Shown: positions 2,147 through 22,852 of the stretch, in pieces | How positions within the stretch are numbered: the first letter of the stretch is position 1 | Layout: the number at the start of each line of letters is the position of its first letter | Origin: an uncultured Caulobacteraceae bacterium | Lineage (GTDB): Bacteria; Pseudomonadota; Alphaproteobacteria; Caulobacterales; Caulobacteraceae | Direction of reading: 5' to 3' | DNA length: 28,465 nt | Assembly (NCBI GenBank): GCA_964614675.1 | Contig: CAZTMF010000001.1 | Span: 1 to 28,465 of the forward strand | The notes under the pieces: model-generated | Database searches by the model: none | Told to the model about the DNA's origin: nothing | The model's input: only the letters and a program-made list of their open reading frames with translations | Translations under genes and position numbers: made by a program

Positions 2147-4107
2147 CACTGCACCAGCGCGATCTTGACGCTGCCGGAGCCGCCGCCGACGCAGTTGGAG
2201 GCCGCGGTGGTGCCGCCGGACAGGGTGACCTGGGTGCCGATCAGCTCCAGGCACTGGCCCGCTCCGCCGCCGACGCTCGAGCCGCCGCTGAGCGATATGG
2301 AGCCCTGCGGGAAATAGAAGGCGCCCGACAGGCTGGTGTTGGAGGCGCCCTCGGCGAACAGGGCCCCGCCGGTGTTGGAGGCGGGACCGACGACCACCAG
2401 ACCCTGGGTGGCGCCCGAGGTTGGTGCGGTCATGGTCACGTGGCCGTAGCCGGCGGCGATGCAGAAGGATTGGCCCGAGCAGGACCCCGAGGCCGGCGTG
2501 GAGGCCCCGCCAATCACCCAGGTCACCCCCGTGCCGCTCATGCCGACAGTCACGCCATTGCAGGTGACGTCGCCGCCCGCCGAGCCGCCGAGGTCGACGT
2601 ACTGCGTAACAGAATAGACGCCCGAACCCAGGATGCTGCCGCCCGCGGTGATGAAGTAACCCTGGATGTCGTGCTGCGCGGCGGCGCTGATGGTGGTGCA
2701 GCTGCCCCCGCCGCTGGAGACGTTGAAGTTGCCGACCAGCTGGAAGACGCTGCCGGCGTCGGTCGCGTCGCCGAGCGTCGTGGTGGCGCCGCCGCCGATA
2801 TAGAAGGCGTTGCCGCCGCTGCTGGGGCCGACGAGGAAGCTGTTTCCGGTCCCGGACGAGCCAAGGACCAGCTTGGAGCCGCCGCCGTTGTAGACGCCGC
2901 CCTGGAGGGTGAAGCTGCTGGGGCCGCCGAAGGTCAGGATCGTGCCGGTATTGCAGATGCTGTAATTGGCGCCGTTGCAGCTGAAGCTCGCCTTGCCGAT
3001 GTTGAAGGTCCCGGCGCCGAACGTCGTAGTGGTGCCGCCGCCGGTGCTGAGACCGCCGGCGATGTTGTAGGTCCCCGGCCCGAAGGTCATGGCCGTGCCG
3101 GTGTTCTTGATCGATCCCGAGAAGTTGTAGGTGGTCGAGGCCGATCCGCCGGTGTTGAAGTTGACCGTGATGCCGCCGCCGGTGGTGATATTTCCGAAGG
3201 TGTAGGACGAGTAGCCGCTGCAGGTGACCGTCCAGGTGTTGCTGGCGAAGGTCCCGCTGCAATGGTCGGTGGTGAGCTGGGCCTGGGTGCTCGCGGTGCT
3301 GTAGGCGAAGTCGACGTCGCCGCCGGCGGTCACGGTCGGCGCAGCCGGCGCCGACATGGACGAGACGCTGGTCAGGTGGCCGGTGGCCGCGGTCACGCCG
3401 GAATTGCCGGCCAGGGGATCGGCGGTCGCCTTCTGGCTGATCGTGGGCGAAGCGCCGCCCGGCCCATGGATCCCGCTGCAGCCGACGGTGGGTGCGGCGG
3501 AATTGTAGGTCACCGACTGGGCGGTGATGCTGGTGCCGCAGGGCACGGTCTCGGAGGCGTTGGACGAGACCGAGCATCCGCTGGCGGTGACGGCGGTGCC
3601 GCCCGAGAGAGCGACGCCAGCGCCGCCCGAGCTCAGGGCGATGATGCAGCCCGAAGTCTGGACGTTCAGCTCGGCGTAGGAGGCGGCCGACACCGGCAGC
3701 GCGGTCGCTCCGCCCACCACCGAGGCGAGGTAGAGCGGAAGGGAGGACGAAACCGTCACCTGCACCGCCTGGTTCCCGTCGCCGGTCGGCGAGCTGACAA
3801 GGCTGGCCGACACATTGGTCGAGGCGACCCCATTCAGGGCCGCGACGGCATTGGCCGCCGAGGTCATGGAGGTGGTGGTGCCGTTGGTGTTGTAGGCCAG
3901 GGCTCCGGCGTAGGCGGCGAGGTCGGCCACTCGCTGGTTTTCGGTCTTGACCAGGAGGCCGTGGCCGTATTCGGCGACAAGCGAGGAAAAGGCGATCAGC
4001 GCGGGCAGGCTCAGCGCCGCGACGATGCTCACCGCCGCCCGGCGGTCACGGGCGAAGGCGCCCAAGCGCCGCGTGATGTGGAACAGCCCCTGCAGCATAG
4101 GTCTCAT
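2146..4107 (-). CDS. tadG: Large TadG-like pilus protein (putative tip adhesin) with a Gly/Thr/Ser-rich repeat domain, 653 aa
   Basis: DRRAAVSIVAALSLPALIAFSSLVAEYG..QRVADLAAYAGA is a Tad/TadG N-terminal motif. It is followed by CIIALS, about nine Gly/Thr repeats and LSGAFYFPQGSISLSGG. Start placed at ATG 4107, with GGGGG upstream. Confidence 0.82.
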   Translation of the reverse strand: MRPMLQGLFHITRRLGAFARDRRAAVSIVAALSLPALIAFSSLVAEYGHGLLVKTENQRVADLAAYAGALAYNTNGTTTSMTSAANAVAALNGVASTNVSASLVSSPTGDGNQAVQVTVSSSLPLYLASVVGGATALPVSAASYAELNVQTSGCIIALSSGGAGVALSGGTAVTASGCSVSSNASETVPCGTSITAQSVTYNSAAPTVGCSGIHGPGGASPTISQKATADPLAGNSGVTAATGHLTSVSSMSAPAAPTVTAGGDVDFAYSTASTQAQLTTDHCSGTFASNTWTVTCSGYSSYTFGNITTGGGITVNFNTGGSASTTYNFSGSIKNTGTAMTFGPGTYNIAGGLSTGGGTTTTFGAGTFNIGKASFSCNGANYSICNTGTILTFGGPSSFTLQGGVYNGGGSKLVLGSSGTGNSFLVGPSSGGNAFYIGGGATTTLGDATDAGSVFQLVGNFNVSSGGGSCTTISAAAQHDIQGYFITAGGSILGSGVYSVTQYVDLGGSAGGDVTCNGVTVGMSGTGVTWVIGGASTPASGSCSGQSFCIAAGYGHVTMTAPTSGATQGLVVVGPASNTGGALFAEGASNTSLSGAFYFPQGSISLSGGSSVGGGAGQCLELIGTQVTLSGGTTAASNCVGGGSGSVKIALVQ

Positions 4108-4253
4108 GGATCTGTTGCCCCCGCGGCAACATCTGCCATCTGACTTAAGCGTCAGTGAGTATCTAAGCTTAACTCCGGTCAACCAAAGTATTGATCGAAG
4201 CAAAGCCCGCGCAGCGGTTCGAAGCCTGCGCCTTCGGGGGGTGGGCCCGCCCG

Positions 4254-9985: not shown

Positions 9986-11107
9986 TCAGGCCAGCGCGGA
10001 CCGTAACGCTGCGATCACCCGCGTGACGCTGTCGTCCGTCAGCTCCGGATAGATGGGCAGGCTCAGGATTTCGGCCGCCAGGGTCTCCGTGACCTCCAAG
10101 CCCCCGGGGCCGATCGGAAGCCTGTCCGCATAGGCCGGCTGTCTGTGGACGGGCTCGGGATAGTGGATGGCCGTCACCACGCCGCGCTCGGCCAGGGCCC
10201 GGCGCAGAGGGTCGCGCTCCGGCGCGCGCACCACATATTGATGCCAGACATGGGTTTCCCCCGGCCCTTCGACCGGCAGGATCAGCGGAAGACCGCGCAG
10301 TCCCTCGGCATAGGCGCCGGCGATGGCGCGGCGGCGGGCGTTGGCCTGGTCCAGACGCGACAGCTTCACCCGCAGCACCGCCGCCTGCACCTCGTCCAGG
10401 CGCGAGTTCATGCCTGCCGTCTCGGAGACGAAGCGTCGACGCCAGCCATATTCTCGGAGGCTCCTTGCGCGCGCCGCCAGGTCCTCGTCGTCGGTCACCA
10501 GCATGCCGCCGTCGCCGAGCGCTCCCAGGTTCTTGGTCGGATAGAAGCTGAAGGCGCCGACCTCGCCGAAGCCTCCGACCTTGCGCCCCCCCACTTCGGC
10601 GCCATGGGCCTGGGCGGCGTCTTCGAGCACGACGGCGCCCCAGCGCCGTGCAAGGGCCCGGATCTCACGGATGCGGGCCGGCCGGCCGTAGAGGTGAACA
10701 GGAACGATGGCCCGGATGGGCGGCTGCGAAGATCGGAGCAAGGCCTCCAGGGCGTCCGGGTCCATGTTGAAGCTCGACGCCTCGACATCGACCAGCACGG
10801 GCGTCGCGCCGGCGAGCTCGATGGCGGCCGCTGTGGCGCTGGCGGTCAGCGAGACGGTCGCCACTCCGTCGCCGGGCCCTATCCCAAGGGCCTTGAGCCC
10901 GAGGGCGATGGCGTCCGTGCCGCTGGCGACGCCGACCGCGAACCGGGTTCCGGTCCAGTCGGCGAACGCCCGCTCGAATGACTCCACCTCCGGCCCCAGG
11001 ACGTATTGTCCATGCGTCAGGACCTTGGCGACGGCAGCGTCGATCTCGACCTTCTGCGCCAGGTAGGCGGCGCGGGGGTCAGCCTGGGGAATCGGAAGGT
11101 CGGTCAC
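9986..11107 (-). CDS. DegT/DnrJ/EryC1/StrS-family PLP-dependent sugar aminotransferase, 373 aa
   Basis: YVLGPEVESFE, VASGTDAI, PVHLYG, EDAAQAHGA, SFYPTKNLGALGDGG (PLP Lys), NSRLDEVQAA and LSLPIYPEL. The GTG start at 11107 overlaps the upstream stop (GTGA). Confidence 0.93.
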   Translation of the reverse strand: MTDLPIPQADPRAAYLAQKVEIDAAVAKVLTHGQYVLGPEVESFERAFADWTGTRFAVGVASGTDAIALGLKALGIGPGDGVATVSLTASATAAAIELAGATPVLVDVEASSFNMDPDALEALLRSSQPPIRAIVPVHLYGRPARIREIRALARRWGAVVLEDAAQAHGAEVGGRKVGGFGEVGAFSFYPTKNLGALGDGGMLVTDDEDLAARARSLREYGWRRRFVSETAGMNSRLDEVQAAVLRVKLSRLDQANARRRAIAGAYAEGLRGLPLILPVEGPGETHVWHQYVVRAPERDPLRRALAERGVVTAIHYPEPVHRQPAYADRLPIGPGGLEVTETLAAEILSLPIYPELTDDSVTRVIAALRSALA

Positions 11108-12090
11108 AGGTAAGCGGCAAGATGTTCGCGGAAATAGTCGAGAGTGCGCTGAAGACCCTCCTCCAGCCCCACCTGCGGCATCCACCCGGTCAGCCGCCGG
11201 AACAAGGCGTCGTCGGCATAGAAATCGCCGATATCGATGCGTCGGCGCTCGGCAGGGAATTCCTTCACCTCGAAACCGCCTCCAGTCAGGCGCGACAGAA
11301 GTTTTGCGGTCTCCAGCAGGCTCAGGGCCGGCGGCGCGCCGGACAGGTTGAACACCTTGCCTATGGCTTCGGGCCGGGAGGCGGCCAGCAGCAGGGCCTC
11401 CACCACGTCGTCGACATAGGCGAAGTCGCGCAGCTGATCTCCGTCCCACACCTCGAAGGAGCGTCCCATCAAGGCGGAGCTGATCCAAATGCCGAGGAAG
11501 GTCTGGCGGGCGTCCTTGATCCGCATCCGGGGCCCATAGGTGTTGGTCAGGCGCAGGATCGAGGCCTTCAGGCCGTAAACCTCGCCATGGAGCCGGTGAT
11601 AGCTCTCGCCGGCGAGCTTGTGCACGCCGTTGAAGTCGACGGGCCGGAGCGGATGGGCCTCGTCGACGGGAAGGTAGTCGGGCCGGCCATAGATCTGACG
11701 GGTCGAGGCGAACACTGTGAGCGCCCCTGGCGCCAGCCGGCGCCAGGCGTCCAGCAACGAAAGATGGGCCCGGCAGTTCAGCTCGAGGTCGAGCTGCGGA
11801 TCGCGCATGGAGTCCAGGTGGCTGGTCTGGCCGGCCAGGTTGAAGATGATCTCCTGGCCCGGCAGCAGGCGCTCCAGCAGCGCCTGGTCGCGGAGGTCGC
11901 CGATCTCCACCGCCAGACGGTGCTCGACGCCCAATATGTTATGGCGCAGGCCGCCCTGACCCGGATGAAGGCAATCGACCAGGGTCACCTGGGAGCCGAG
12001 CTCGACCAGTCGGCGAGCGAGATTCGACCCCAGGAACCCGAGACCGCCCGTCACCAGCACGCGGGCGCCCTGGAAAGCGGAGGCGCTCAC
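11104..12090 (-). CDS. NAD-dependent nucleotide-sugar epimerase/dehydratase (extended SDR), 328 aa
   Basis: VLVTGGLGFLGSNL, FNLAG, ASTRQIYG, FNGVHK (the YxxxK Tyr position appears to be Asn), RLTNTYGPR and RDFAYVDD. GTG start at 12090 with AAGGAG upstream, overlapping the previous stop. Confidence 0.92.
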   Translation of the reverse strand: MSASAFQGARVLVTGGLGFLGSNLARRLVELGSQVTLVDCLHPGQGGLRHNILGVEHRLAVEIGDLRDQALLERLLPGQEIIFNLAGQTSHLDSMRDPQLDLELNCRAHLSLLDAWRRLAPGALTVFASTRQIYGRPDYLPVDEAHPLRPVDFNGVHKLAGESYHRLHGEVYGLKASILRLTNTYGPRMRIKDARQTFLGIWISSALMGRSFEVWDGDQLRDFAYVDDVVEALLLAASRPEAIGKVFNLSGAPPALSLLETAKLLSRLTGGGFEVKEFPAERRRIDIGDFYADDALFRRLTGWMPQVGLEEGLQRTLDYFREHLAAYL

Positions 12091-13967
12091 TCTCCTTGCC
12101 GCTGGCCGGTCGCCTGCAGCAATTCGTCCAGGGCCGCTTCGACCGTCTCCACGGACAGCGACCAGGCGTCGCGCTGCGGCCCCGCCGGATCGCCGAACAG
12201 ATAGCTGAACCGGTTTCCCGACGCCCCGATCCAAAGGGCGATCTCGTCGAGGAATCCGTGAGCCGCAGGCGGCATGAGCGCCAGGACGCCGCGCGGCCTC
12301 GATCCATAGGCGGCAAGATTCAGATAGGCCGACCCATAGGCGCCCCCGATCATCTCGGCCTGCGAGAAGAGGGCGTGGGCGCGTTCGAAGCTCAGCCGCT
12401 CGGGCCGGATCGAGCGGAAGCCGCGGCGCTCGAAGGCGGCGCGGATCTCGGGCTCGTTGACGAGGCTGCGGGTCGAGACGCCTTCCCGTGACAGATAGAG
12501 GCGCTCCCCGCGATCGGTCTTCATCGGCGGAGCGAGGCGCTGATAGACGTCGAAAAGGCCCCGCATGGGCTGGCTGCGCAGGGGAAGGGGCCAGGACGGG
12601 ACATAGAGCTTGGCGAACACGGACACCCCCCGGGGATCGTGGAGGATGATCCGGTCGCGTCGGACGCCGAGCGCTTCGAGCATATGCAGCCAGGGCTCCG
12701 GCCGCCCAGACCGCACCACGATCGGACAATCAAGGCCGGCGGCTGCGGCGATCGTCAGGCGGCCGGGGAAGTTCAGCGTCCAGTCGCCGAAGCCGGAGTC
12801 CGTGGGACCCGCCAGCAACAGGGCCGGCGTGTCGAACACCTCGACCGGACAGGCGCCGTCGCGGAACGTCGGCGGGTCGGCGACGATGTGACCATGGGCC
12901 TCCTGCAGCCCCGCCTTGCCGAGGTCACACGGGGGCTTCAGTTCCTCGGGCGCTTCGCCCTTGCGGTTCAGGACCAGGCCGCGGCCGACCAGCGCTGCGC
13001 CCTCGAGCGCGGCCAGGTGCTTGGGCGCCGTCGTGTACCTGAACAGCGTCTTGCCGGCCGGCGCGCTCGCGAGCCGGACCACCGGCTCCAGTTCGACAGT
13101 CTCCCCTCCGGGATCGAGCGTCAGGATGGCGTCGCCGGACCCCTCGAGCTCGCGCAGGTCGCGCACCTGCTGCAGCGCCTCGCCTCTGGGGCGGATCGGG
13201 ATTGCCTCGCGTGGATCGAAGACGAATCCCCTGGGGCCAAGCCGCCGGGACATCACGGGCTTGACCGCCCATTGGGTTCGCGGAGAGTAGATGCGCCATG
13301 CCCGCTTGAGCGGCTCGAGCTCCTCGGACTTGGCCTGGGCCTCCAAAGCGCCGCGCCAGCCGAGCCAGCCTTCCACGAAGGCCGGACAATAGCGCGTCAG
13401 CTTGGCGAACTTGATCTCGGCGTCGGCGAACCGCCGGCGAGCCAACAGCTCCATCGCCTCGAGATACAGTCCCTTGAAAGCCGGGCTGAGGCCGCGCCGA
13501 GAGTCTTGCTCCAGGCCGACCAGGGCCGCCCGGTGACGGCGGAGAAGAACTGGCGCGTCCTCGGGATGCTTCGCGATGGCCTCCGCAAACCCCCTGGTGG
13601 CTTCGCTGTAGAATCCCATCTCGAAGAACAGGGACGCGCTTTCAATCTCCGGGATGGACGGGCCGTCACCGGTCTCCGGGCGGCTCCGCAAGGCGTTCAA
13701 CGCGTCGCTGAAGCGTCCCAGGCCGATGAAGGCCCTCGCCAATTCGACGGCCGCAGCCGCGGAAGCCGGGTGGAGGCGCACGGTCTCAGCGAGCTTGGCG
13801 ATCCGCTTCTTCGCGGCTTCAAGCCGAAGCCGAGGGAAAGTCAGCGCATTCGCACTCGCGATGGTCTCCACCGAGGCCGATCGGCCTGGGTCCGGACGCA
13901 CCGCCACAGCGGCCCGCCGGACGGGCGCACGGCGCGCCTCGACCGCTCTTACTCGCACAAACGCCAT
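12087..13967 (-). CDS. TPR-repeat protein fused to a GT61 (DUF563-type) glycosyltransferase domain, about 626 aa
   Basis: N-terminal TPR-like helices (LARAFIGLGRFSDALNAL, LFFEMGFYSEATRGFAEAI, LLARRRFADAEIKF..PAFVEGWLGW). C-terminal FGDWTLNFPGRL and RLYLSRE..RSLVNEPEI..GFRSIRPERLSFE..LFSQAEMIGGAYGSAYLN. Start inferred at ATG 13967. Confidence 0.78.
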   Translation of the reverse strand: MAFVRVRAVEARRAPVRRAAVAVRPDPGRSASVETIASANALTFPRLRLEAAKKRIAKLAETVRLHPASAAAAVELARAFIGLGRFSDALNALRSRPETGDGPSIPEIESASLFFEMGFYSEATRGFAEAIAKHPEDAPVLLRRHRAALVGLEQDSRRGLSPAFKGLYLEAMELLARRRFADAEIKFAKLTRYCPAFVEGWLGWRGALEAQAKSEELEPLKRAWRIYSPRTQWAVKPVMSRRLGPRGFVFDPREAIPIRPRGEALQQVRDLRELEGSGDAILTLDPGGETVELEPVVRLASAPAGKTLFRYTTAPKHLAALEGAALVGRGLVLNRKGEAPEELKPPCDLGKAGLQEAHGHIVADPPTFRDGACPVEVFDTPALLLAGPTDSGFGDWTLNFPGRLTIAAAAGLDCPIVVRSGRPEPWLHMLEALGVRRDRIILHDPRGVSVFAKLYVPSWPLPLRSQPMRGLFDVYQRLAPPMKTDRGERLYLSREGVSTRSLVNEPEIRAAFERRGFRSIRPERLSFERAHALFSQAEMIGGAYGSAYLNLAAYGSRPRGVLALMPPAAHGFLDEIALWIGASGNRFSYLFGDPAGPQRDAWSLSVETVEAALDELLQATGQRQGE

Positions 13968-14320
13968 CCGATCGCCCCCCGGCTCAATCAGAACACCAAG
14001 GGCGCCAGATTCGCCCCAAGCCCACGAACATTTCAAGTGCGCAATCAACGAAATGTTCGCGCCGAGCCGACCTGTGGCTCCGTTGAAGTGATTAAGATAC
14101 GACTGTGACAAGCCGTCGCTTGATCAAGCTTGATCTCGGCTTCTGCCCTGTCGGCGCGGGCGGGCGGAGGGCCCGCGCTCGGTGGGAGCATGTCCCAAGT
14201 TGGAGCGCGATCGCCGGCGACTTACTGCTGCTACTGACGCTCGCGGCATGCAGCCGCGCCCGAGGTTGCACCCGACGGACGCCCCCGAGCCGAAGCGTCC
14301 GATCACCAGGTGCGCGGGCG

Positions 14321-14611
14321 TCATTTGTCGGGCAAGGCCAACCGCGCGCCCAGGCTCAACACGGGCGCGCCGTCCCGCTCGATCCAGTGGGCCTCAAAAC
14401 GTCCTGCCAGATCACCGTCCAGCCGTCGCCGCAGCTCCCCGTCCACGTCCGGCGGGGCAGCCCAGCGGACCGGCGGCGAGGTGGCGTCATCCTCGAAGAT
14501 CAGCCAAGCCTGGTTCGGCGGGGTGCAACGGCACAAGACAATGACCACGCGGCTGTCGGCGCGGGCCTGCGAACAGCCAAAATCCGCGGGTGGCGGGGAC
14601 AGCAGGTGCAT
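14321..14611 (-). CDS. Small hypothetical protein, 96 aa
   Basis: The only ORF in the 14.0-14.9 kb gap that looked coding to me (mostly G/C at third positions). Globular-looking sequence VVIVLCRCTPPNQAWLIFEDD..ELRRRLDGDLAGRFEAHW; weak RBS. Confidence 0.45.
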   Translation of the reverse strand: MHLLSPPPADFGCSQARADSRVVIVLCRCTPPNQAWLIFEDDATSPPVRWAAPPDVDGELRRRLDGDLAGRFEAHWIERDGAPVLSLGARLALPDK

Positions 14612-14889
14612 CGCTTCTTTCAACTTGCAACTTGCCAAAATCGACCGTGGCGCAGCTCAGCTGTGACGCCTTGGGATTGCGCGGGTATATCAATGCCGCG
14701 AACGCGCGGCCAAAACTGGGCGCCTGCCGATATTGCCGGCGCCGACAGCCACTCCATCGAGGTTTGAGCGGAGACGTCCGAACAGCGCGACGGCGCACCA
14801 ATTCGATCCGTTCGGGCGCCAAGATGAAGATTGTCGTCCAGGGCTGACCGAGCCGCCGCGGCGTCTGTCGACTGTCGTGAAATAGATCC

Positions 14890-17151
14890 TCACGAACCAG
14901 ATCGCGCCACGCGATCTTCCCGGCAAGCCGGCCGTCCGACGATCCTCAAGCCGCCCAGCTCGGCGATCGCCGCGACGATGTGGTAGAACGAACTTGCCGG
15001 CGCGGGGCCGTCTGCGAATTGCCCCTCCGTTCCCAGGCGGTCTCTCCAGAGGCCCGGAATGGGCGTCGCAAAATAGGTCTCGAGCACCTCCGCCGCCCGG
15101 ACTGACGCGTCCTGTTCACCCAGGATGTGCGCGGCCTTGACCCGTTCAGTCTGTGGCCACAGCCGCGCGGTGCGTTCGCGCGGCGAGAGGTCGTCCAGAA
15201 GGCTGTCGATCGCCGCGCCCGAGACCCGGTCGACTCCGGCGTCGCCCACCTCGAACAGCCGCCGGGCCCTGGCGGATGCATCCCGGCGATCATTCAGCCA
15301 AGCCCATTGCTGCAGCAGCCAGGCCCATTCGAACTGGTGCCCGGGCTCGACGATCCGGCCCAGATCACCGGGCGCGGGCCGCCATTGCTCGTCGAAGACT
15401 TCGCGCAGCGCGCCCGATTCAGCATCGATGAAGCGGCTGCAGCAGAGCTCGCCGATCTCGTCGGCCAGTTCTCGCCAACCGGCGTGGGCGCTCACGCCGC
15501 TCCAGGTGAGCGACGCCTCGAAGAGGTGCATCAGAGCGTTGGACTGGTATGGCCTATCGTCTCCCGCCTCGCGCAGGCCCCCCGACGGACAGTCATGGGC
15601 CTCGCGGACGCGGCCAAGCAACGCCTCGGCCTGCGCGGAGAGCCTCGCCCGGTCCTCCGGCAGCGCCTTGGCGGCAGAGGCCAGGGACAGAAGCACGAAG
15701 GCCTGATCATAGAGCATGGCCGAATCATCGGCGACGGCCCCGTTGTCGGTGACCAGGGTGCGGTAGAGGCCGTCGGGGCGGCGGTACCGCGTATCCAGGT
15801 AGTCGAGGCCGTGACCGATCGCCTGGCGCCAGGGCCCCCGCCAGCCGAGGGCGCCGGCGGTTGCATAGCTATAGACCTGCCGAGCCTGCACCCTGAGTCT
15901 GCGCCCTTCGTCAGCGGGCCGACCCTGCTGATCCAGCCCCTCGCGGAATCCGCCACGCTCGTGGTCGGCTCCCAGAGACCACCAGATCGGAAGGGCGCTG
16001 GTCATGAGCCAGTCCGTCAGCCGCCCGCTCACCGCCGCCAGGGGCCCTACCTCTCCCGCCACTGTGGCCGAGGCGGCCTTGAGCTTGTCGACCAACCCCT
16101 TCACCTCCTGGCTGGCATCGAGGGCGCAGACGAGGATGGCGTCCGGCTCGACCACCACGCCCACCCGGTCCAGTCCCACGAGGGTGACGAGCTGGCCTGT
16201 GGCGGAACGCACCAACGACCCGGTGCTCGCGTGCGCCATCGCCGCGCCCCGGAAGGCATTGCCCTGCTCGTCCTGAGCAGAGGCCTGATGGATCGCCTGC
16301 CAGGACCCGAGGTCCGACCAGGAGTAGCTGACCGGCACCACCGCGGCGTGGCGGGTCTTCTCCATCAGGGCGTAGTCGATGGAGATCTTGGGCGCGGTCC
16401 GGAATTGGTCGCCCAGGTCCAGGCCGTCGGACCTCTGCTCGCCGCCCACGTAGGCCGCGCGCACCCTCTCCATCAGCTCGGGCGCGAAGGTATCGAGTTC
16501 GCCCAGCAGCCGGTCGGCGCGGAAAACGAAGTTGCCGCTATTCCAGAGATAGCCGGCGTCGACATAGGCCTTGGCCGTCTCGGCCGGCGGCTTCTCCACG
16601 AAGCGCCGCACCCAGTGGGCGCCGGGCGCCAGATCCAGCGCCTCGGCCGGCTCGATATAGCCATAGCCGGTGGAGGGTTCGGTCGGCCTTATCCCGAAGG
16701 TCGCGATGGCGCCCCCCGCCGCAGCCGCCACAGCGATCTCGGCCGCGGCGCAGAAGGCGTCTGCGTCCGGGATATGGTGATCGGCGGCGACCACCACGGC
16801 CACGCCGTCGGCGGCCTGGCCCTGAATCCAGCAGCCGGCGGCCGCTATGGCGGGCGCCGAATCCCGACCCTCGGGCTCGATGATGATGAAGGCGGACCGG
16901 CCGATCGCGGCAAGCTGTTCGCGGATCAGCTCAAGGTGCGCGCGGCCCGCGACGATAACCGCATCGCGCGCCCCGCGCAGGCGCGACATGCGCAGCACGG
17001 TGTCCTGGAAGATCGAGAATTCGCCCAGCAGCGGCAGGAACTGCTTCGGCCGCGAGGGCCGCGACGCCGGCCAGAGCCGCGTGCCCGCCCCTCCGCACAG
17101 GATGACTGGAAACACAGGCAGTTCTACGCGCGGCAAAGGAGCCCCTCTCAT
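14890..17151 (-). CDS. manC: Mannose-1-phosphate guanylyltransferase fused to a C-terminal AGE-family (alpha/alpha)6 epimerase/isomerase, about 753 aa
   Basis: N-domain PVILCGGAGTRLWPASR..PKQF, FVEKP, WNSGNF, SIDYALMEK, WSDLGSW. C-domain RVQARQVYSYA, LYDQAF, NALMHLFEA, EPGHQFEWAWLL, WPQTERVKA, FYHI. Start uncertain (17151 or slightly downstream). Confidence 0.9.
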   Translation of the reverse strand: MRGAPLPRVELPVFPVILCGGAGTRLWPASRPSRPKQFLPLLGEFSIFQDTVLRMSRLRGARDAVIVAGRAHLELIREQLAAIGRSAFIIIEPEGRDSAPAIAAAGCWIQGQAADGVAVVVAADHHIPDADAFCAAAEIAVAAAAGGAIATFGIRPTEPSTGYGYIEPAEALDLAPGAHWVRRFVEKPPAETAKAYVDAGYLWNSGNFVFRADRLLGELDTFAPELMERVRAAYVGGEQRSDGLDLGDQFRTAPKISIDYALMEKTRHAAVVPVSYSWSDLGSWQAIHQASAQDEQGNAFRGAAMAHASTGSLVRSATGQLVTLVGLDRVGVVVEPDAILVCALDASQEVKGLVDKLKAASATVAGEVGPLAAVSGRLTDWLMTSALPIWWSLGADHERGGFREGLDQQGRPADEGRRLRVQARQVYSYATAGALGWRGPWRQAIGHGLDYLDTRYRRPDGLYRTLVTDNGAVADDSAMLYDQAFVLLSLASAAKALPEDRARLSAQAEALLGRVREAHDCPSGGLREAGDDRPYQSNALMHLFEASLTWSGVSAHAGWRELADEIGELCCSRFIDAESGALREVFDEQWRPAPGDLGRIVEPGHQFEWAWLLQQWAWLNDRRDASARARRLFEVGDAGVDRVSGAAIDSLLDDLSPRERTARLWPQTERVKAAHILGEQDASVRAAEVLETYFATPIPGLWRDRLGTEGQFADGPAPASSFYHIVAAIAELGGLRIVGRPACREDRVARSGS

Positions 17152-17307
17152 CAACTGGAACAACTGATCCGCTGCCCCGGGCAAGTGTCAAGCCGGCCAA
17201 GAGGAGCGCCGGCGCATCGGCGCAGAGTTTCGCCGCATTGACCACATAGTTGAGTTCGATTAACCTTTGTTCTCAGTTTTTGTGCAGCTCTCGAAGGAGG
17301 GCGAATA

Positions 17308-17445
17308 TTGCGACGATTAGCGGCAGGTCTTCAACTCGGCGCGCTGATCGGGTTTTGGCTGGTGGCGTGGTTGCCGCTGGCGTTCTACTGCCTCGCGGCG
17401 TCCGCGGTCAGCATCTTGCGCAGCCCGAGGCACGTTCTTTCCTGA
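17308..17445 (+). CDS. Small membrane peptide, 45 aa (not in the ORF track)
   Basis: AAGGAGG (17294-17300) 7 nt before TTG. Translation MRRLAAGLQLGALIGFWLVAWLPLAFYCLAASAVSILRSPRHVLS has one long hydrophobic segment. Confidence 0.5.
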   Translation: MRRLAAGLQLGALIGFWLVAWLPLAFYCLAASAVSILRSPRHVLS

Positions 17446-17529
17446 AATCTCGGCGCCCGGCATCCGGGCCCGGCCTGGTTCTGCGGCAGTCCCGGCGGGA
17501 CAGCGATCGGGGAACCGATGACGGTCGGG

Positions 17530-18396
17530 TCAGGCGGTGGCGATCATGGACATCTCAGCCGAAGCGAGGTCCGGGCGCCAGATGTGGTGCAGACGCCCTT
17601 CCGCATGCCTGCGCTGCGGAGAGATCACGAACTTGACGATATCGCCGAAGGCCGCCGGCGCCAGCGCCCACGGCTCGATGAGATAGCGCCGGCCGAGGCG
17701 GCGCGGGTCGCAGACCAGGCGATACAGCCACTCGATGCACAGGAGGCCCAGAAGGCGCGGCGCCGCAGGCTGGATCCCGGCCTCGTAGTCGAACGCCGCC
17801 CCCACCGACAGAAGGACGCCCGAGGTCAGCGCATGGAAGTTGCGGCCGATCCACCGCTCCTGCAGCGGCATGCCCATGCCGACCAGGACGACGTCGGGCC
17901 GGAAAGCGTTGATCTGTTCGACAACGGCCGCGTTTTCGGCCGAGCCGTCGGCCTGGTCGAAGTAGCCATGGTGGGTGGCGATCTCGATGCCCGGCCATTC
18001 GAGCTGCAGCCGGCGGGCCGCCTCGTCCGCTACGCCGGGCTCGGCTCCCAGGCAAAAGATCCGCCAGCCTTTGGCCGAGGCCATGGCCCAGAACTGATCG
18101 CGCCAGTCCAGATAGGTGCAGCGGTTCGCCGGTTTCGTCTCGAGGCCCATCAGACGGCCCCAGAGCACCATCGGCATGGAGTCGATCTCGATCAGGTTCG
18201 CCAGGTCGAAGAAGGCCGCCATCTCCGGGTCTTTCCGGGACAGGTACAGACTGTGCAGGTTCTGGTTGGCGACGACGCCCTTGCGGCCGGAAGCGGCGGC
18301 CTCGTCGATGAAGGCCAGCACGTCTTCGGTGGTGACGAGATCCGCGGCCGCTCCGAGGAGTTCGACGCGGCGGACGATTTCTTTCGCCTTTCCCAT
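17530..18396 (-). CDS. WecB/TagA/CpsF-family glycosyltransferase (GT26), 288 aa
   Basis: ANQNLHSL, IDSMP, FCLGAEPGVA, HHGYF, VGMGMPLQERWI, VGAAFDYEAG and EWLYRLVCDPRRLGRRY. Confidence 0.93.
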   Translation of the reverse strand: MGKAKEIVRRVELLGAAADLVTTEDVLAFIDEAAASGRKGVVANQNLHSLYLSRKDPEMAAFFDLANLIEIDSMPMVLWGRLMGLETKPANRCTYLDWRDQFWAMASAKGWRIFCLGAEPGVADEAARRLQLEWPGIEIATHHGYFDQADGSAENAAVVEQINAFRPDVVLVGMGMPLQERWIGRNFHALTSGVLLSVGAAFDYEAGIQPAAPRLLGLLCIEWLYRLVCDPRRLGRRYLIEPWALAPAAFGDIVKFVISPQRRHAEGRLHHIWRPDLASAEMSMIATA

Positions 18397-20614: not shown

Positions 20615-22852
20615 ATGCCCACGATTTCCAATATTCCTTACATCATCGAAAACGGCGGCAAGCCTTGGAGCTTCTCCCAGAGCGGAGACGTGTCTCGTTT
20701 CGAGGTCCACCCCGGCGACAAGTGGTCGGGCGACGCGGTCTACGCCAATCCCAAGGAACGGTCAGAGATATCGACCACCACCAAGTTCCAGTTCAACCAG
20801 GTCTACACGCTCGAATACAAGTTCATGATCGAGCCGGGCGCTCCCAACACATCCAACTGGATGTACATCGGGCAAATCCATGCGACCCCTGATGCGGCGG
20901 ACGCCGCGCTCGGACCGCCGGTCGGCATCCAGCTGGTCGGCGACCGGCTGGAGATCACGGTAAGCTCTGACGCCAAGGCGACCCAGACGACCACTCCCCC
21001 TGTCCAGACCCTGTTCCTGGACAGCCAGAACATCACTCGCGGCCAATGGTACGACATCACCATGCAGGTGAAGTTCGATCCAAGCGGCGGCGGCATGCTG
21101 AACGTCTTCAAGGATGGCGTTCAGATCGTCAACTATACTGGACCGCTCGGATACAACGACGCCGTGGGACCCTATTGGAAAGAGGGCATCTATCGAGGCC
21201 CCTCTCCAAATCCGATCGCCGTAGACTACAAAGGCCTCGATATCGAAACCGGCCAGTTCAACAAGGCCGTGACAGCGACCAGCGGCCAGCCGCTTTCGGG
21301 GACCGCCGGGGCGGACCATCTCGGCGTCGCCGCGGCCCAGGGCGGAGCCACTGGAGGCGCCGGGTCGGTCGTGCAGGGGTTGGGCGGCGACGACGTGCTG
21401 GTTTCGGGGCCAGGCAACGACACCCTGGACGGCGGGGCGGGCAACGACACGGCGGTGTTCAGCCAAGCCTATGGCGCCTACGCGACCGCCTCCAGCGCGG
21501 CGGCGACGACGGTCAGCGGCCCGGACGGAACCGACACCCTGATTGGCGTCGAAATGCTCACCTTCGCCGACCGGCAGGTGATCGTCTCGACCGCTGGGCA
21601 GACCCTCACCGCCCGCGCTGGCGCCGACATCCTTGTCGGCGGCGCAGGAGCAGACACCTTCGTGGTCAAACCGGGCAACGACGTCATCGACGGCGGCGCC
21701 GGAAGCGACACGGTGATCTTCTCCGGGAACTCCTCGGCTTACACGATCGGCCTGAACAACGGCGCGCTGACGGTGCGCGGCCCGGACGGGACCGACACCC
21801 TGACCAATGTCGAGAGCCTGCGCTTCGCCGACAGCACCGTGCTGGCGTCCAGCATCACCTCCTCGACATTGGGGGGCCAGACGCCGAACGGCGCCGGCGC
21901 CCTGAATTCCGGTTCGGGCGGCGCCACGCTCACCGGGAACGCCGGCAATGACACGCTGAACGGCGGGGCCGGGAACGATACGCTGACCGGAAACGCCGGC
22001 AATGACGTGCTCAATGGCGGCGCAGGGATCGATACCGCCGTCTTCAGCAACACCTATGCCCACTACGCCATCACCACGGCCAGCAGCGGCGCGACCGCCA
22101 TCAGCGGCCCCGACGGGAACGACACGCTGACCAACATCGAGATCCTCAGGTTCGCCGACCGGCAGATGGTGATCACCAGCGCCGGCGAAACCCTGACCGC
22201 CCGCGCGGGGGGCGACACCCTGGTCGGGGGGACCGGCGACGACACCCTGGTGATCGGTTCAGGCAACGACAAGATCTACGGCGGCGCGGGCTCCGATATC
22301 GTTCTCTTCTCGGGCGCATACTCGACCTATACCGTCAGTCAGAGCGCCGGCGTTGTGACGGTGAACGGCCCCGGCGGGACCACCGACACCCTGAACAATG
22401 TCGAGACCCTCCATTTCGCTGACCAGACCGTCAGCGTCGCCAGCCTCGCCTCTCCGGCGCCCGCCGGGCAGACCCTCACGGGCGGCGCGGGTGCGGATGT
22501 CCTGACTGGCGGCGCGGGCGCAGATATCCTCAAAGGCGGAGCTGGCCAGGACACCCTGACCGGAGGCGCCGGGAACGACGCCTTCGTGTTCGGCGCGTTG
22601 GCGGACACCGCCGTCGCCCACCCCGACACGATCACCGACTTCGTCTCGGGTCAGGACCGAATTGACGTCTCCGCCATCGACCCGCACTTCCATCTTGGAT
22701 CCGCGGCCGGAGCCCACACCATCGTGGTGAACTACGACGCCGCACACGACCGCACCGTCGTCGACCTATATGTGACTGGCGGGTCCACGCCCGGGGCGGA
22801 GATCTGGCTCACGGGCGCCCATGCCCTGAACGCCAGCGACTTCCTTCTCTAA
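20615..22852 (+). CDS. Type I-secreted RTX protein: N-terminal polysaccharide-lyase (jelly-roll, PF14099/heparin-lyase-I-like) domain, Ca-binding GGxGxD repeats and a serralysin-like C-terminus, 745 aa
   Basis: Lyase-like motifs RFEVHPGD, KERSEI, YIGQIH, GQWY, YWKEGIYR. Many GGAGNDT nonapeptides, DTLxNVExLxFAD modules and DTITDFVSGQDRIDVSAID..ASDFLL terminus. No Sec signal; GAGG RBS. Confidence 0.85.
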   Translation: MPTISNIPYIIENGGKPWSFSQSGDVSRFEVHPGDKWSGDAVYANPKERSEISTTTKFQFNQVYTLEYKFMIEPGAPNTSNWMYIGQIHATPDAADAALGPPVGIQLVGDRLEITVSSDAKATQTTTPPVQTLFLDSQNITRGQWYDITMQVKFDPSGGGMLNVFKDGVQIVNYTGPLGYNDAVGPYWKEGIYRGPSPNPIAVDYKGLDIETGQFNKAVTATSGQPLSGTAGADHLGVAAAQGGATGGAGSVVQGLGGDDVLVSGPGNDTLDGGAGNDTAVFSQAYGAYATASSAAATTVSGPDGTDTLIGVEMLTFADRQVIVSTAGQTLTARAGADILVGGAGADTFVVKPGNDVIDGGAGSDTVIFSGNSSAYTIGLNNGALTVRGPDGTDTLTNVESLRFADSTVLASSITSSTLGGQTPNGAGALNSGSGGATLTGNAGNDTLNGGAGNDTLTGNAGNDVLNGGAGIDTAVFSNTYAHYAITTASSGATAISGPDGNDTLTNIEILRFADRQMVITSAGETLTARAGGDTLVGGTGDDTLVIGSGNDKIYGGAGSDIVLFSGAYSTYTVSQSAGVVTVNGPGGTTDTLNNVETLHFADQTVSVASLASPAPAGQTLTGGAGADVLTGGAGADILKGGAGQDTLTGGAGNDAFVFGALADTAVAHPDTITDFVSGQDRIDVSAIDPHFHLGSAAGAHTIVVNYDAAHDRTVVDLYVTGGSTPGAEIWLTGAHALNASDFLL
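21431..22432 (+). repeat. Internal duplication of a 137/139-aa module (21431-21841 and 22016-22432), plus a 2 x 54-bp RTX tandem repeat (21929-22036)
   Basis: Both units read GGAGxDTAVFS..SGPDGxDTLxxxExLxFADRQ..xAGxTLTARAGxDxLVGG..GNDxIxGGAGSDxVxFSG..GPxGxxDTLxNVExLxFADxTV. The 54-bp units encode LTGNAGNDTLNGGAGNDT and LTGNAGNDVLNGGAGIDT. Confidence 0.9.

Follow-up and report, generated by a model that had tools for sequence, protein, structure and literature searches.

The window analysed here, a stretch of 28,465 nucleotides from contig CAZTMF010000001.1 of an uncultured Caulobacteraceae bacterium, carries on its reverse strand a gene in which a ManC-type mannose-1-phosphate guanylyltransferase (GMP) and an AGE-superfamily domain form one polypeptide, with no cupin domain. 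By sequence and predicted fold, the two halves are those of a ManC-type GMP and of a putative AGE-fold type III phosphomannose isomerase (PMI). We consider it quite probable that the gene encodes a bifunctional PMI/GDP-mannose pyrophosphorylase, built like the type II PMI-GMP enzymes but with a non-homologous isomerase, which would feed the Wzx/Wzy-type polysaccharide locus in which it lies. Bifunctional PMI-GMP enzymes are the textbook case of two non-consecutive pathway steps carried on one chain. Within a single bacterial order, evolution has probably arrived at this pairing again at least three times, using an isomerase whose fold is wholly different, and this repeated rebuilding argues that selection acts on the pairing itself, through co-expression, stoichiometry or control of the mannose-phosphate flux, and that the pairing is not an accident of the cupin fusion.

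Architecture of the fused gene

The open frame is uninterrupted up to a TTG upstream of the ATG (14890..17184 (-), 764 aa), and a database protein of 753 aa that starts at the ATG (P0002) is 100% identical to the window gene. Residue numbers of the Pfam domains are counted from the TTG; in this numbering the three His residues discussed below are H553, H616 and H735, and counted from the ATG they are H542, H605 and H724. The features of the gene are as follows.

14890..17151 (-), fused gene manC-manA(AGE), 753 aa from the ATG at 17149-17151, with the stop codon at 14890-14892
16264..17109 (-), nucleotidyltransferase (GDP-mannose pyrophosphorylase) catalytic domain, residues 26-307 (Pfam PF00483 NTP_transferase, 1.3e-39)
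17038..17094 (-), glycine-rich nucleotide-binding loop with PK, GGAGTRLWPASRPSRPKQF, pattern GGxGxRLWPxSRxxxPKQF
16588..16602 (-), FVEKP motif of mannose-1-phosphate guanylyltransferases
16081..16224 (-), ManC left-handed beta-helix domain (ManC_GMP_beta-helix), residues 321-368 (Pfam PF22640, 2e-07), with strands at 299-343 in the model
16021..16080 (-), end of a helix, then a short linker of low confidence joining the two enzymes, residues about 369-388
14968..15954 (-), AGE-superfamily (alpha/alpha)6 domain, predicted type III phosphomannose isomerase, residues 411-739
15877..15903 (-), RRLRVQARQ, with the conserved AGE-family Arg and further, clade-specific Arg residues (candidate 6-phosphate binders)
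15517..15540 (-), NALMHLFE, His motif 1 (H553 from the TTG, H542 from the ATG), aligned with NMHMxEA of 3gt5 and 5x32
15325..15348 (-), EPGHQFEW, His motif 2 (H616, H605), aligned with PGHQTEW of 3gt5 and 5x32
15133..15165 (-), RLWPQTERVKA, with the conserved AGE Glu and clade-specific R/R/K; FWVQAES in mannose-isomerase-like structures
14977..14988 (-), FYHI, His motif 3 (H735, H724), aligned with DYHTMG of 3gt5 and 5x32

The match of the C-terminal half to Pfam PF07221 (GlcNAc_2-epim/AGE, 6.9e-71) covers the whole model (positions 1-347 of 347), and neither the cupin PMI PF01050 nor the type I PMI domain PF20511 gave a match in the fused gene or its genome. In agreement with this, the NCBIfam model of the bifunctional enzymes, TIGR01479 (GMP_PMI), aligned only over positions 2-351 of 467 (E 3e-102) and scored 342.7 against a cut-off of 372.95, and the models for N-acylglucosamine 2-epimerase (NF052547) and D-mannose isomerase (NF051846) reached 46.1 and 33.8 bits, far below their cut-offs of 600. 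An earlier note made from the sequence of the window had proposed a complete GMP-transferase domain (~16080-17120) fused to an AGE domain (~14950-16020), which had replaced the usual cupin and retained the NALMHLFE, EPGHQFEW and FYHI motifs; all of this was borne out, with Pfam placing the two halves at 16081-17109 and 14968-15954, the motifs lying at the positions listed above and both Pfam and TIGR01479 showing no cupin.

Conservation was assessed across 25 fused homologues, which are 51-73% identical overall. In the ManC half, residues G20, G21, G23, R25, L26, W27, P28, S30, P35 and K36 of the nucleotide-binding loop are invariant, as are F184, V185, E186, K187 and P188 of the FVEKP motif. 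We take the loop pattern and FVEKP to be signature motifs of the ManC-type GMP family, FVEKP presumably being involved in sugar-1-phosphate binding. The invariant residues of the AGE half include M541, H542 and E545 in the first His motif, P603, G604, H605, E608 and W609 in the second, Y723 and H724 in the third, and R663, W665, T668, E669 and K672 in RLWPQTERVKA. Seven invariant residues (H542, H605, H724, E545, E608, E669 and R424) match the motif positions of 3gt5 and 5x32, and we assume for these His, Glu and Arg residues the catalytic roles described in the AGE-family literature. Furthermore, the clade has extra invariant Arg and Lys residues at positions which are non-basic in 3gt5 and 5x32, both enzymes of unphosphorylated sugars (one such position lies in RRLRVQARQ, according to the hidden Markov model alignment), and these residues, among them R420, R663 and K672 in ATG numbering, are candidates for binding the 6-phosphate of the substrate.

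We also obtained an AlphaFold model, built on a 25-sequence alignment, in which both domains are confidently folded (predicted local distance difference test score, pLDDT, of 88 overall and >90 in the AGE helical repeat). The linker has pLDDT <50 at residues 361-366, between helices 344-362 and 370-394. In Foldseek searches the N-terminal domain superposed on the GDP-mannose pyrophosphorylases 2x65 and 2cu2 with template modelling (TM) scores of 0.82-0.90 (for 2x65, from Thermotoga maritima, E 3e-26, 34% identity and TM 0.82), and the C-terminal domain superposed on AGE-family enzymes with TM 0.78-0.85, the D-mannose isomerase 5x32 being at TM 0.85. By profile search the nearest solved structures of the AGE domain are 3gt5 (E 4e-25) and 5x32 (E 9e-21); a search of the PDB with the single sequence was less informative, giving only remote matches at about 1e-11. 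Because neither sequence nor fold searches of the PDB returned an entry named as an AGE-fold PMI, the fused protein, which nature provides as a single chain, may be a useful construct with which a type III PMI could for the first time be characterised biochemically and structurally.

Relation to ManA and ManC of Caulobacter

Aligned over 367 residues, the AGE domain shows 52% identity (E 6e-104) to ManA of Caulobacter vibrioides DSM 9893, the orthologue of CCNA_03732 of C. crescentus, and the ManC domain is approximately 50% identical to the C. vibrioides counterpart of CCNA_03733. Given these identities to two adjoining genes, manA and manC, the window gene can be described as a fusion of homologues of two genetically characterised neighbours. 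CCNA_03732 is annotated as a YihS-like AGE-family protein; it is apparently essential and is rescued by Escherichia coli ManA and not by YihS; a hypomorph (A23T/G339N) showed a raised ratio of fructose-6-phosphate (F6P) to mannose-6-phosphate (M6P) together with lowered O-antigen and exopolysaccharide (EPS), and the authors of that preprint use the term type-III PMI (10.1101/700559). Deletion of CCNA_03733, the adjoining manC, is viable, abolishes smooth lipopolysaccharide (LPS) and shortens the core (PMC9393093).

In C. vibrioides DSM 9893 (locus L015) the AGE gene lies at 2983-4155 and has Ala 23 and Gly 339 at the positions mutated in CCNA_03732. It is convergent with a short ManC which consists of the NTP_transferase domain and the beta-helix, without a cupin, the same form as in the window, and the AGE motifs of the two proteins also match. 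The Caulobacter pair supplies GDP-mannose for LPS and EPS, and we take the fused gene to have the same role. The arrangement differs, with two separate convergent genes in Caulobacter and, in the window, one polypeptide in which ManC precedes the AGE domain; the window ManC domain belongs to an almost wholly fused clade which is the sister of the Caulobacter manC clade. Two genes lie divergently upstream of manA in loci of the genus Caulobacter, one for a GmhB-like phosphatase of the HAD type and one for an RmlD-like reductase (L015:2351-2959 (-), likewise in L011-L020). A search for HddA within 3 kb of the manA loci of the genus gave this GmhB-like phosphatase but no HddA.

Proposed function

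We propose that the AGE domain, as a type III PMI, would interconvert F6P and M6P by paired-His proton transfer, as in AGE aldose-ketose isomerases, that a separate phosphomannomutase encoded elsewhere in the genome would make mannose-1-phosphate, and that the N-terminal domain would then combine mannose-1-phosphate with GTP into GDP-mannose, as suggested by its approximately 50% identity to the C. vibrioides counterpart and by the phenotype of the manC deletion. One chain would carry steps 1 and 3 of the pathway, as in AlgA, XanB and WbpW, and the GDP-mannose would probably go to the Wzx/Wzy polysaccharide locus that holds the gene. Co-expression and stoichiometry of the two putative activities, on these predicted substrates, may be what the fusion provides.

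PMI is the best reading of the AGE domain because of its homology to Caulobacter ManA, its invariant active-site residues, the extra Arg and Lys residues, the scarcity of other PMIs and the need for GDP-mannose. With regard to scarcity, a genuine cupin PMI (PF01050) was found in only 1 of 61 genomes drawn evenly from the family of the window (27 genera) and a type I PMI in 3. The need for GDP-mannose, and the availability of the middle step, follow from a bona fide gmd (609 bits, on contig 282) and two phosphoglucomutase/phosphomannomutase (PGM/PMM) genes in the genome of the window, where the fused gene is the only ManC-type match. The earlier note had suggested a convergently built bifunctional PMI-GMP, and this is now the best-supported reading in view of the 52% identity to the Caulobacter PMI orthologue and the invariant motifs; for its other suggestion, a GDP-hexose pathway fed by a different 2-epimerisation, we found no positive support.

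Distribution and origin of the fusion

A survey of this domain architecture, which the earlier note had proposed, found a continuous fused frame in 17 of the 61 family genomes (10 of 27 genera) and in 19 of 151 genomes of the order, in 4 of 6 families. Among seven fused frames newly fetched from the order, six were free of stops and the seventh had one. In a class sample of 301 genomes, which includes the unpublished genome G100 as one of 300 negatives, no fused form was found outside the family; in most other Alphaproteobacteria of that sample ManC open frames measure about 480-520 aa and have the classical cupin form. In protein databases we found more than 120 clusters (at 90% identity) with the full architecture, 50-73% identical and coming from Phenylobacterium, Caulobacteraceae and Caulobacterales assemblies, as the earlier note had anticipated for Caulobacteraceae annotations. 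The architecture is thus already in the databases under generic names, 'AGE family epimerase/isomerase' at NCBI and 'mannose-1-phosphate guanylyltransferase/mannose-6-phosphate isomerase' at JGI, and a literature search of incomplete coverage found no paper that describes it. As an annotation rule, a Caulobacterales 'AGE family epimerase/isomerase' of approximately 720-790 aa can be read as a ManC/ManA fusion.

Among the remaining genomes of the family, approximately 11 have the two genes as same-strand neighbours, 3 have them on opposite strands and the others have them elsewhere. Same-strand neighbours, which overlap or are separated by only a few bases, occur in G014, G038, G056, G015, G004, G030, G048, G026 and G060, and neighbours on opposite strands in the genus Caulobacter, G049, G019 and G017. 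We also noted three other arrangements. In G055 (G055:C12:2607-4868, L112) the order is reversed, the AGE gene coming first and ManC following approximately 90 nt downstream, with strand and frame shared and a stop between them. G037 has the only classical ManC-cupin type II enzyme among the 61 genomes (G037:C1:863655-865058, L148; PF01050 at 152.8 bits, 605-aa open frame) and additionally carries an AGE gene elsewhere. In another alphaproteobacterial family, an AGE match of G111 (G111:C14:232318-233460) falls within a 797-aa open frame, which may represent another kind of AGE fusion or simply a long frame in GC-rich DNA.

Trees of both halves were inferred by quick IQ-TREE runs without outgroup, with SH-like approximate likelihood ratio test (SH-aLRT) support only, and any direction of events read from them is tentative. 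On the ManC tree, 26 fused genes and one stand-alone gene form a single clade (SH-aLRT 99), sister to the manC clade of the genus Caulobacter, whereas the fused gene of G012 and those from two other families of the order take other positions. The label 'fused' requires at least four changes on this tree, probably at least three independent fusions and one fission, a count that rests on its starred branches. Of the 24 fused domains on the AGE tree, 22 share one starred clade with eight stand-alone copies, and this clade nests in a larger group with C. vibrioides ManA and homologues from Ensifer, Rhizobium and Agrobacterium, with moderate support (SH-aLRT 90). Present in independent genomes and with more than one origin, the fusion is a real single gene and not an artefact, and it represents an evolutionary variant, not a new kind of system. 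Among the observations that, according to the earlier note, would count against its proposal were separate genes in relatives combined with a sequencing artefact: the two domains are indeed separate in many relatives, whereas the recurrence of the fusion in independent genomes speaks against an artefact.

AGE paralogues in heptose cassettes

The genome of the window (G000) encodes on contig 3 a stand-alone AGE paralogue that is 57% identical to the fused domain and belongs to the same subclade. It is directly followed by genes for an HddA-like heptose-7-phosphate kinase (334 bits) and a fusion of an HddC-like guanylyltransferase with a GmhB phosphatase, and by its gene content this cluster (L159:6096-9755, G000:C3:22095-25754) is a predicted cassette for GDP-glycero-manno-heptose in which an AGE enzyme stands where GmhA would be expected. 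In G017, a complete genome from a different genus, the genes of an AGE-HddC-GmhB-HddA cassette all share one strand (G017:C13:171941-175398, L167:2442-5899); the AGE protein encoded there has 42% identity to C. vibrioides ManA and retains every motif. GmhA itself gave no match in G000 (84% complete), in G017, in 55 of the 61 family genomes or, with either TIGR00441 or PF13580, in the control genome of C. vibrioides. The conversion of a ketose phosphate to a manno-configured aldose phosphate is the same chemistry as that of a PMI, and the gene content suggests a possible non-orthologous replacement of GmhA, the phosphoheptose isomerase that usually opens the heptose pathway, by AGE-type isomerases in this group. 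If this replacement is real, it would supply the first step of heptose synthesis that is otherwise missing here, and would matter more than the fusion itself.

A broader idea, which we regard as rather unlikely, is that the AGE module serves in Caulobacterales as a general isomerase for manno-configured ketose phosphates, opening both the GDP-mannose and the glycero-manno-heptose pathways in the place of the cupin PMI and of the SIS enzyme GmhA. The supply of GDP-mannose alone does not explain why manA is essential and manC can be deleted in C. crescentus, and a general isomerase of this kind would account for it. If so, the fused enzyme and the stand-alone paralogue would be two specialisations of one promiscuous catalyst.

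Alternative explanations

Several points weigh against the assignment of the fused gene as a PMI-GMP. The PMI activity of the Caulobacter ManA family was assigned by genetics and metabolomics, not with a purified enzyme (10.1101/700559). The genome of the window is a metagenome-assembled genome (MAG), 84% complete and in 936 contigs, which makes the absence of any other PMI or ManC from it weak evidence; the family-wide scarcity of PMIs is the stronger argument. No direct consumer of GDP-mannose was identified within the window. The AGE paralogue in the heptose-type cassette, at 57% identity, indicates that substrate specificity may vary within the clade, and the HddC/Rv3264c-like nucleotidyltransferase beside it could be a second GDP-sugar pyrophosphorylase. 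Finally, the predicted TM score (pTM) of the model, 0.61, means that the relative orientation of the domains is not confidently predicted, and the model is silent on channelling.

The heptose cassettes, found in genomes without a GmhA match, are the main reason why we give some weight to a broader or different substrate of the fused AGE domain. The domain might isomerise another ketose phosphate, or several, and the enzyme would then not be, or not only be, a PMI-GMP. Within the genome of the window, the paralogue nearest to the domain precedes an HddA-like kinase and an HddC-GmhB fusion, a cassette with the same components stands on one strand in the 100% complete genome of a second genus, GmhA is missing from the searches of 55 of 61 family genomes and of the control, and the contrast between an essential manA and a viable manC deletion hints at a role of ManA beyond GDP-mannose (10.1101/700559; PMC9393093). 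We nevertheless find this improbable, as the fused partner is a ManC-type guanylyltransferase with a beta-helix, a kind characterised on mannose-1-phosphate, and not of the HddC type, and the AGE copies of the heptose cassettes are unfused. Heptose is presumably part of the Caulobacter core. The activity of the family that has experimental support is that on F6P and M6P (10.1101/700559). Action on unphosphorylated sugars, as a mannose/fructose isomerase or glucose/mannose 2-epimerase that would provide a salvage entry instead of a PMI step, is very improbable. The solved structures nearest to the domain (3gt5 and, as a D-mannose isomerase, 5x32) and the best NCBIfam matches (AGE at 46 bits, D-mannose isomerase at 34 bits) would point that way, but the latter lie far under their cut-offs, and identity to unphosphorylated-sugar enzymes is approximately 20% as against 52% to the Caulobacter PMI orthologue. 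The extra invariant Arg and Lys residues at positions non-basic in 3gt5 and 5x32 argue in the same direction, no hexokinase or mannokinase is linked to the fused gene, and CCNA_03732 could be replaced by E. coli ManA but not by YihS (10.1101/700559).

It is highly improbable that the AGE domain is catalytically dead and serves the regulation or oligomerisation of an otherwise ordinary ManC. The stand-alone AGE copy in the genome could supply PMI activity in such a case; however, the three His motifs, the Glu and the Arg are invariant among fused homologues that are only 51-73% identical, the Pfam match of the domain spans the full model at 6.9e-71, and in G032, G047, G058, G018, G040, G028, G025, G050 and G012 the fusion is the sole match, with no separate AGE copy detected. 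That the fusion is an assembly or sequencing artefact is almost inconceivable. The source of the window is a fragmented MAG, and in G014, G038, G056, G015 and G004 the two genes are one-strand neighbours a few bases apart, which a single indel could fuse in silico, but the same continuous frame is shared by 17 genomes of the family, by genomes from other families of the order, some of them complete or near-complete, and by the more than 120 protein clusters. The fused ManC domains also form their own clade apart from the ManCs of adjacent genes, and the linker is modelled as a helix and a short loop.

Comparison with known systems

The type II PMI-GMP enzymes (AlgA, XanB, WbpW and ManC/CpsB; TIGR01479) share with the window enzyme the N-terminal GMP and beta-helix domains and the logic of placing steps 1 and 3 of GDP-mannose synthesis on one chain. 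They carry a C-terminal cupin (PF01050) where the window enzyme has an AGE (alpha/alpha)6 domain of approximately 370 aa, and in the absence of the cupin the window enzyme would be a functional counterpart of the type II enzymes and not a member of their family. The chemistry probably differs too, the cupin being metal-dependent and AGE enzymes using paired-His acid-base catalysis. Monofunctional short GDP-mannose pyrophosphorylases of Thermotoga maritima and Thermus thermophilus (2x65, 2x5s and 2cu2) have the same two-domain N-terminal architecture (30-34% identity, TM 0.82-0.90) without an isomerase domain.

The Pmi of Sinorhizobium (Rhizobium) meliloti, reportedly from the work of Schmidt et al. 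in 1992, is said to be the founding 'type III' PMI. Stand-alone AGE homologues of Ensifer, Rhizobium and Agrobacterium are 44-47% identical to the window AGE domain and, on the AGE tree, these Rhizobiaceae proteins are the sister group of the clade with the fused domains; unlike the AGE domain of the window, they have no ManC within 3 kb. These Rhizobiaceae loci presumably correspond to the published pmi gene of S. meliloti, a link that draws on the type-III statement of the Caulobacter preprint (10.1101/700559). Among solved structures of the AGE superfamily (5x32, 3gt5 from Xylella, the YihS/sulfoquinovose isomerases 2zbl and 7ag4, the cellobiose 2-epimerase 3wkg, and AGE itself, 1fp3 and 2gz6), the fold (TM 0.7-0.85) and the positions of the His/His/Glu/Arg residues match those of the window domain. 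The identity is 16-23%, however; their substrates are unphosphorylated or sulfonated sugars, and none of them carries a nucleotidyltransferase as fusion partner.

Genomic context

The fused gene stands at the edge of a Wzx/Wzy-type locus which includes genes for a GMC oxidoreductase, two polysaccharide lyases, Wzy and an FkbM methyltransferase. Fused homologues of Phenylobacterium and its relatives likewise lie inside polysaccharide loci, with a flippase, Wzy, glycosyltransferases and a pyruvyl transferase. Upstream of the gene we distinguish one further feature.

17185..17529 (-), upstream intergenic region of 345 bp with an AT-richer stretch, separating the fused gene from the GT26 (WecG/TagA) gene at 17530-18396

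A scan of this region for the sigma-70 consensus gave no promoter-like match; the region is probably the fused gene's own promoter region. Downstream, a gap of approximately 780 bp (14112-14889) lies between the fused gene and a TPR-GT61/SDR/DegT cassette. It contains no open reading frame recognisable by Pfam (14105-14767 on the forward strand gave nothing), and a terminator scan returned one weak terminator-like hairpin (14545-14564 (-)), no better than those of shuffled sequences. We considered whether the DegT aminotransferase (9986-11488 (-)), the SDR (11104-12729 (-)) and the fused gene could form a GDP-perosamine operon, and rejected this in view of the gap and of the nature of the SDR, which matches models of LegB, GalE and dTDP-glucose 4,6-dehydratase at approximately 1e-30 and gmd at only 2e-6 (27 bits). 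As its SDR is not a GDP-mannose dehydratase, we do not tie the cassette to the fused gene.

One of the polysaccharide lyases of the locus, encoded at 20615-22852, has an RTX tail, and the window itself holds no transporter for it. On contig 3 of the same genome, a type I secretion pair consisting of a PrtD-type ABC exporter (550 bits, above cut-off) and an HlyD adaptor (L159:2807-5987 (-)) is a candidate exporter of this lyase.

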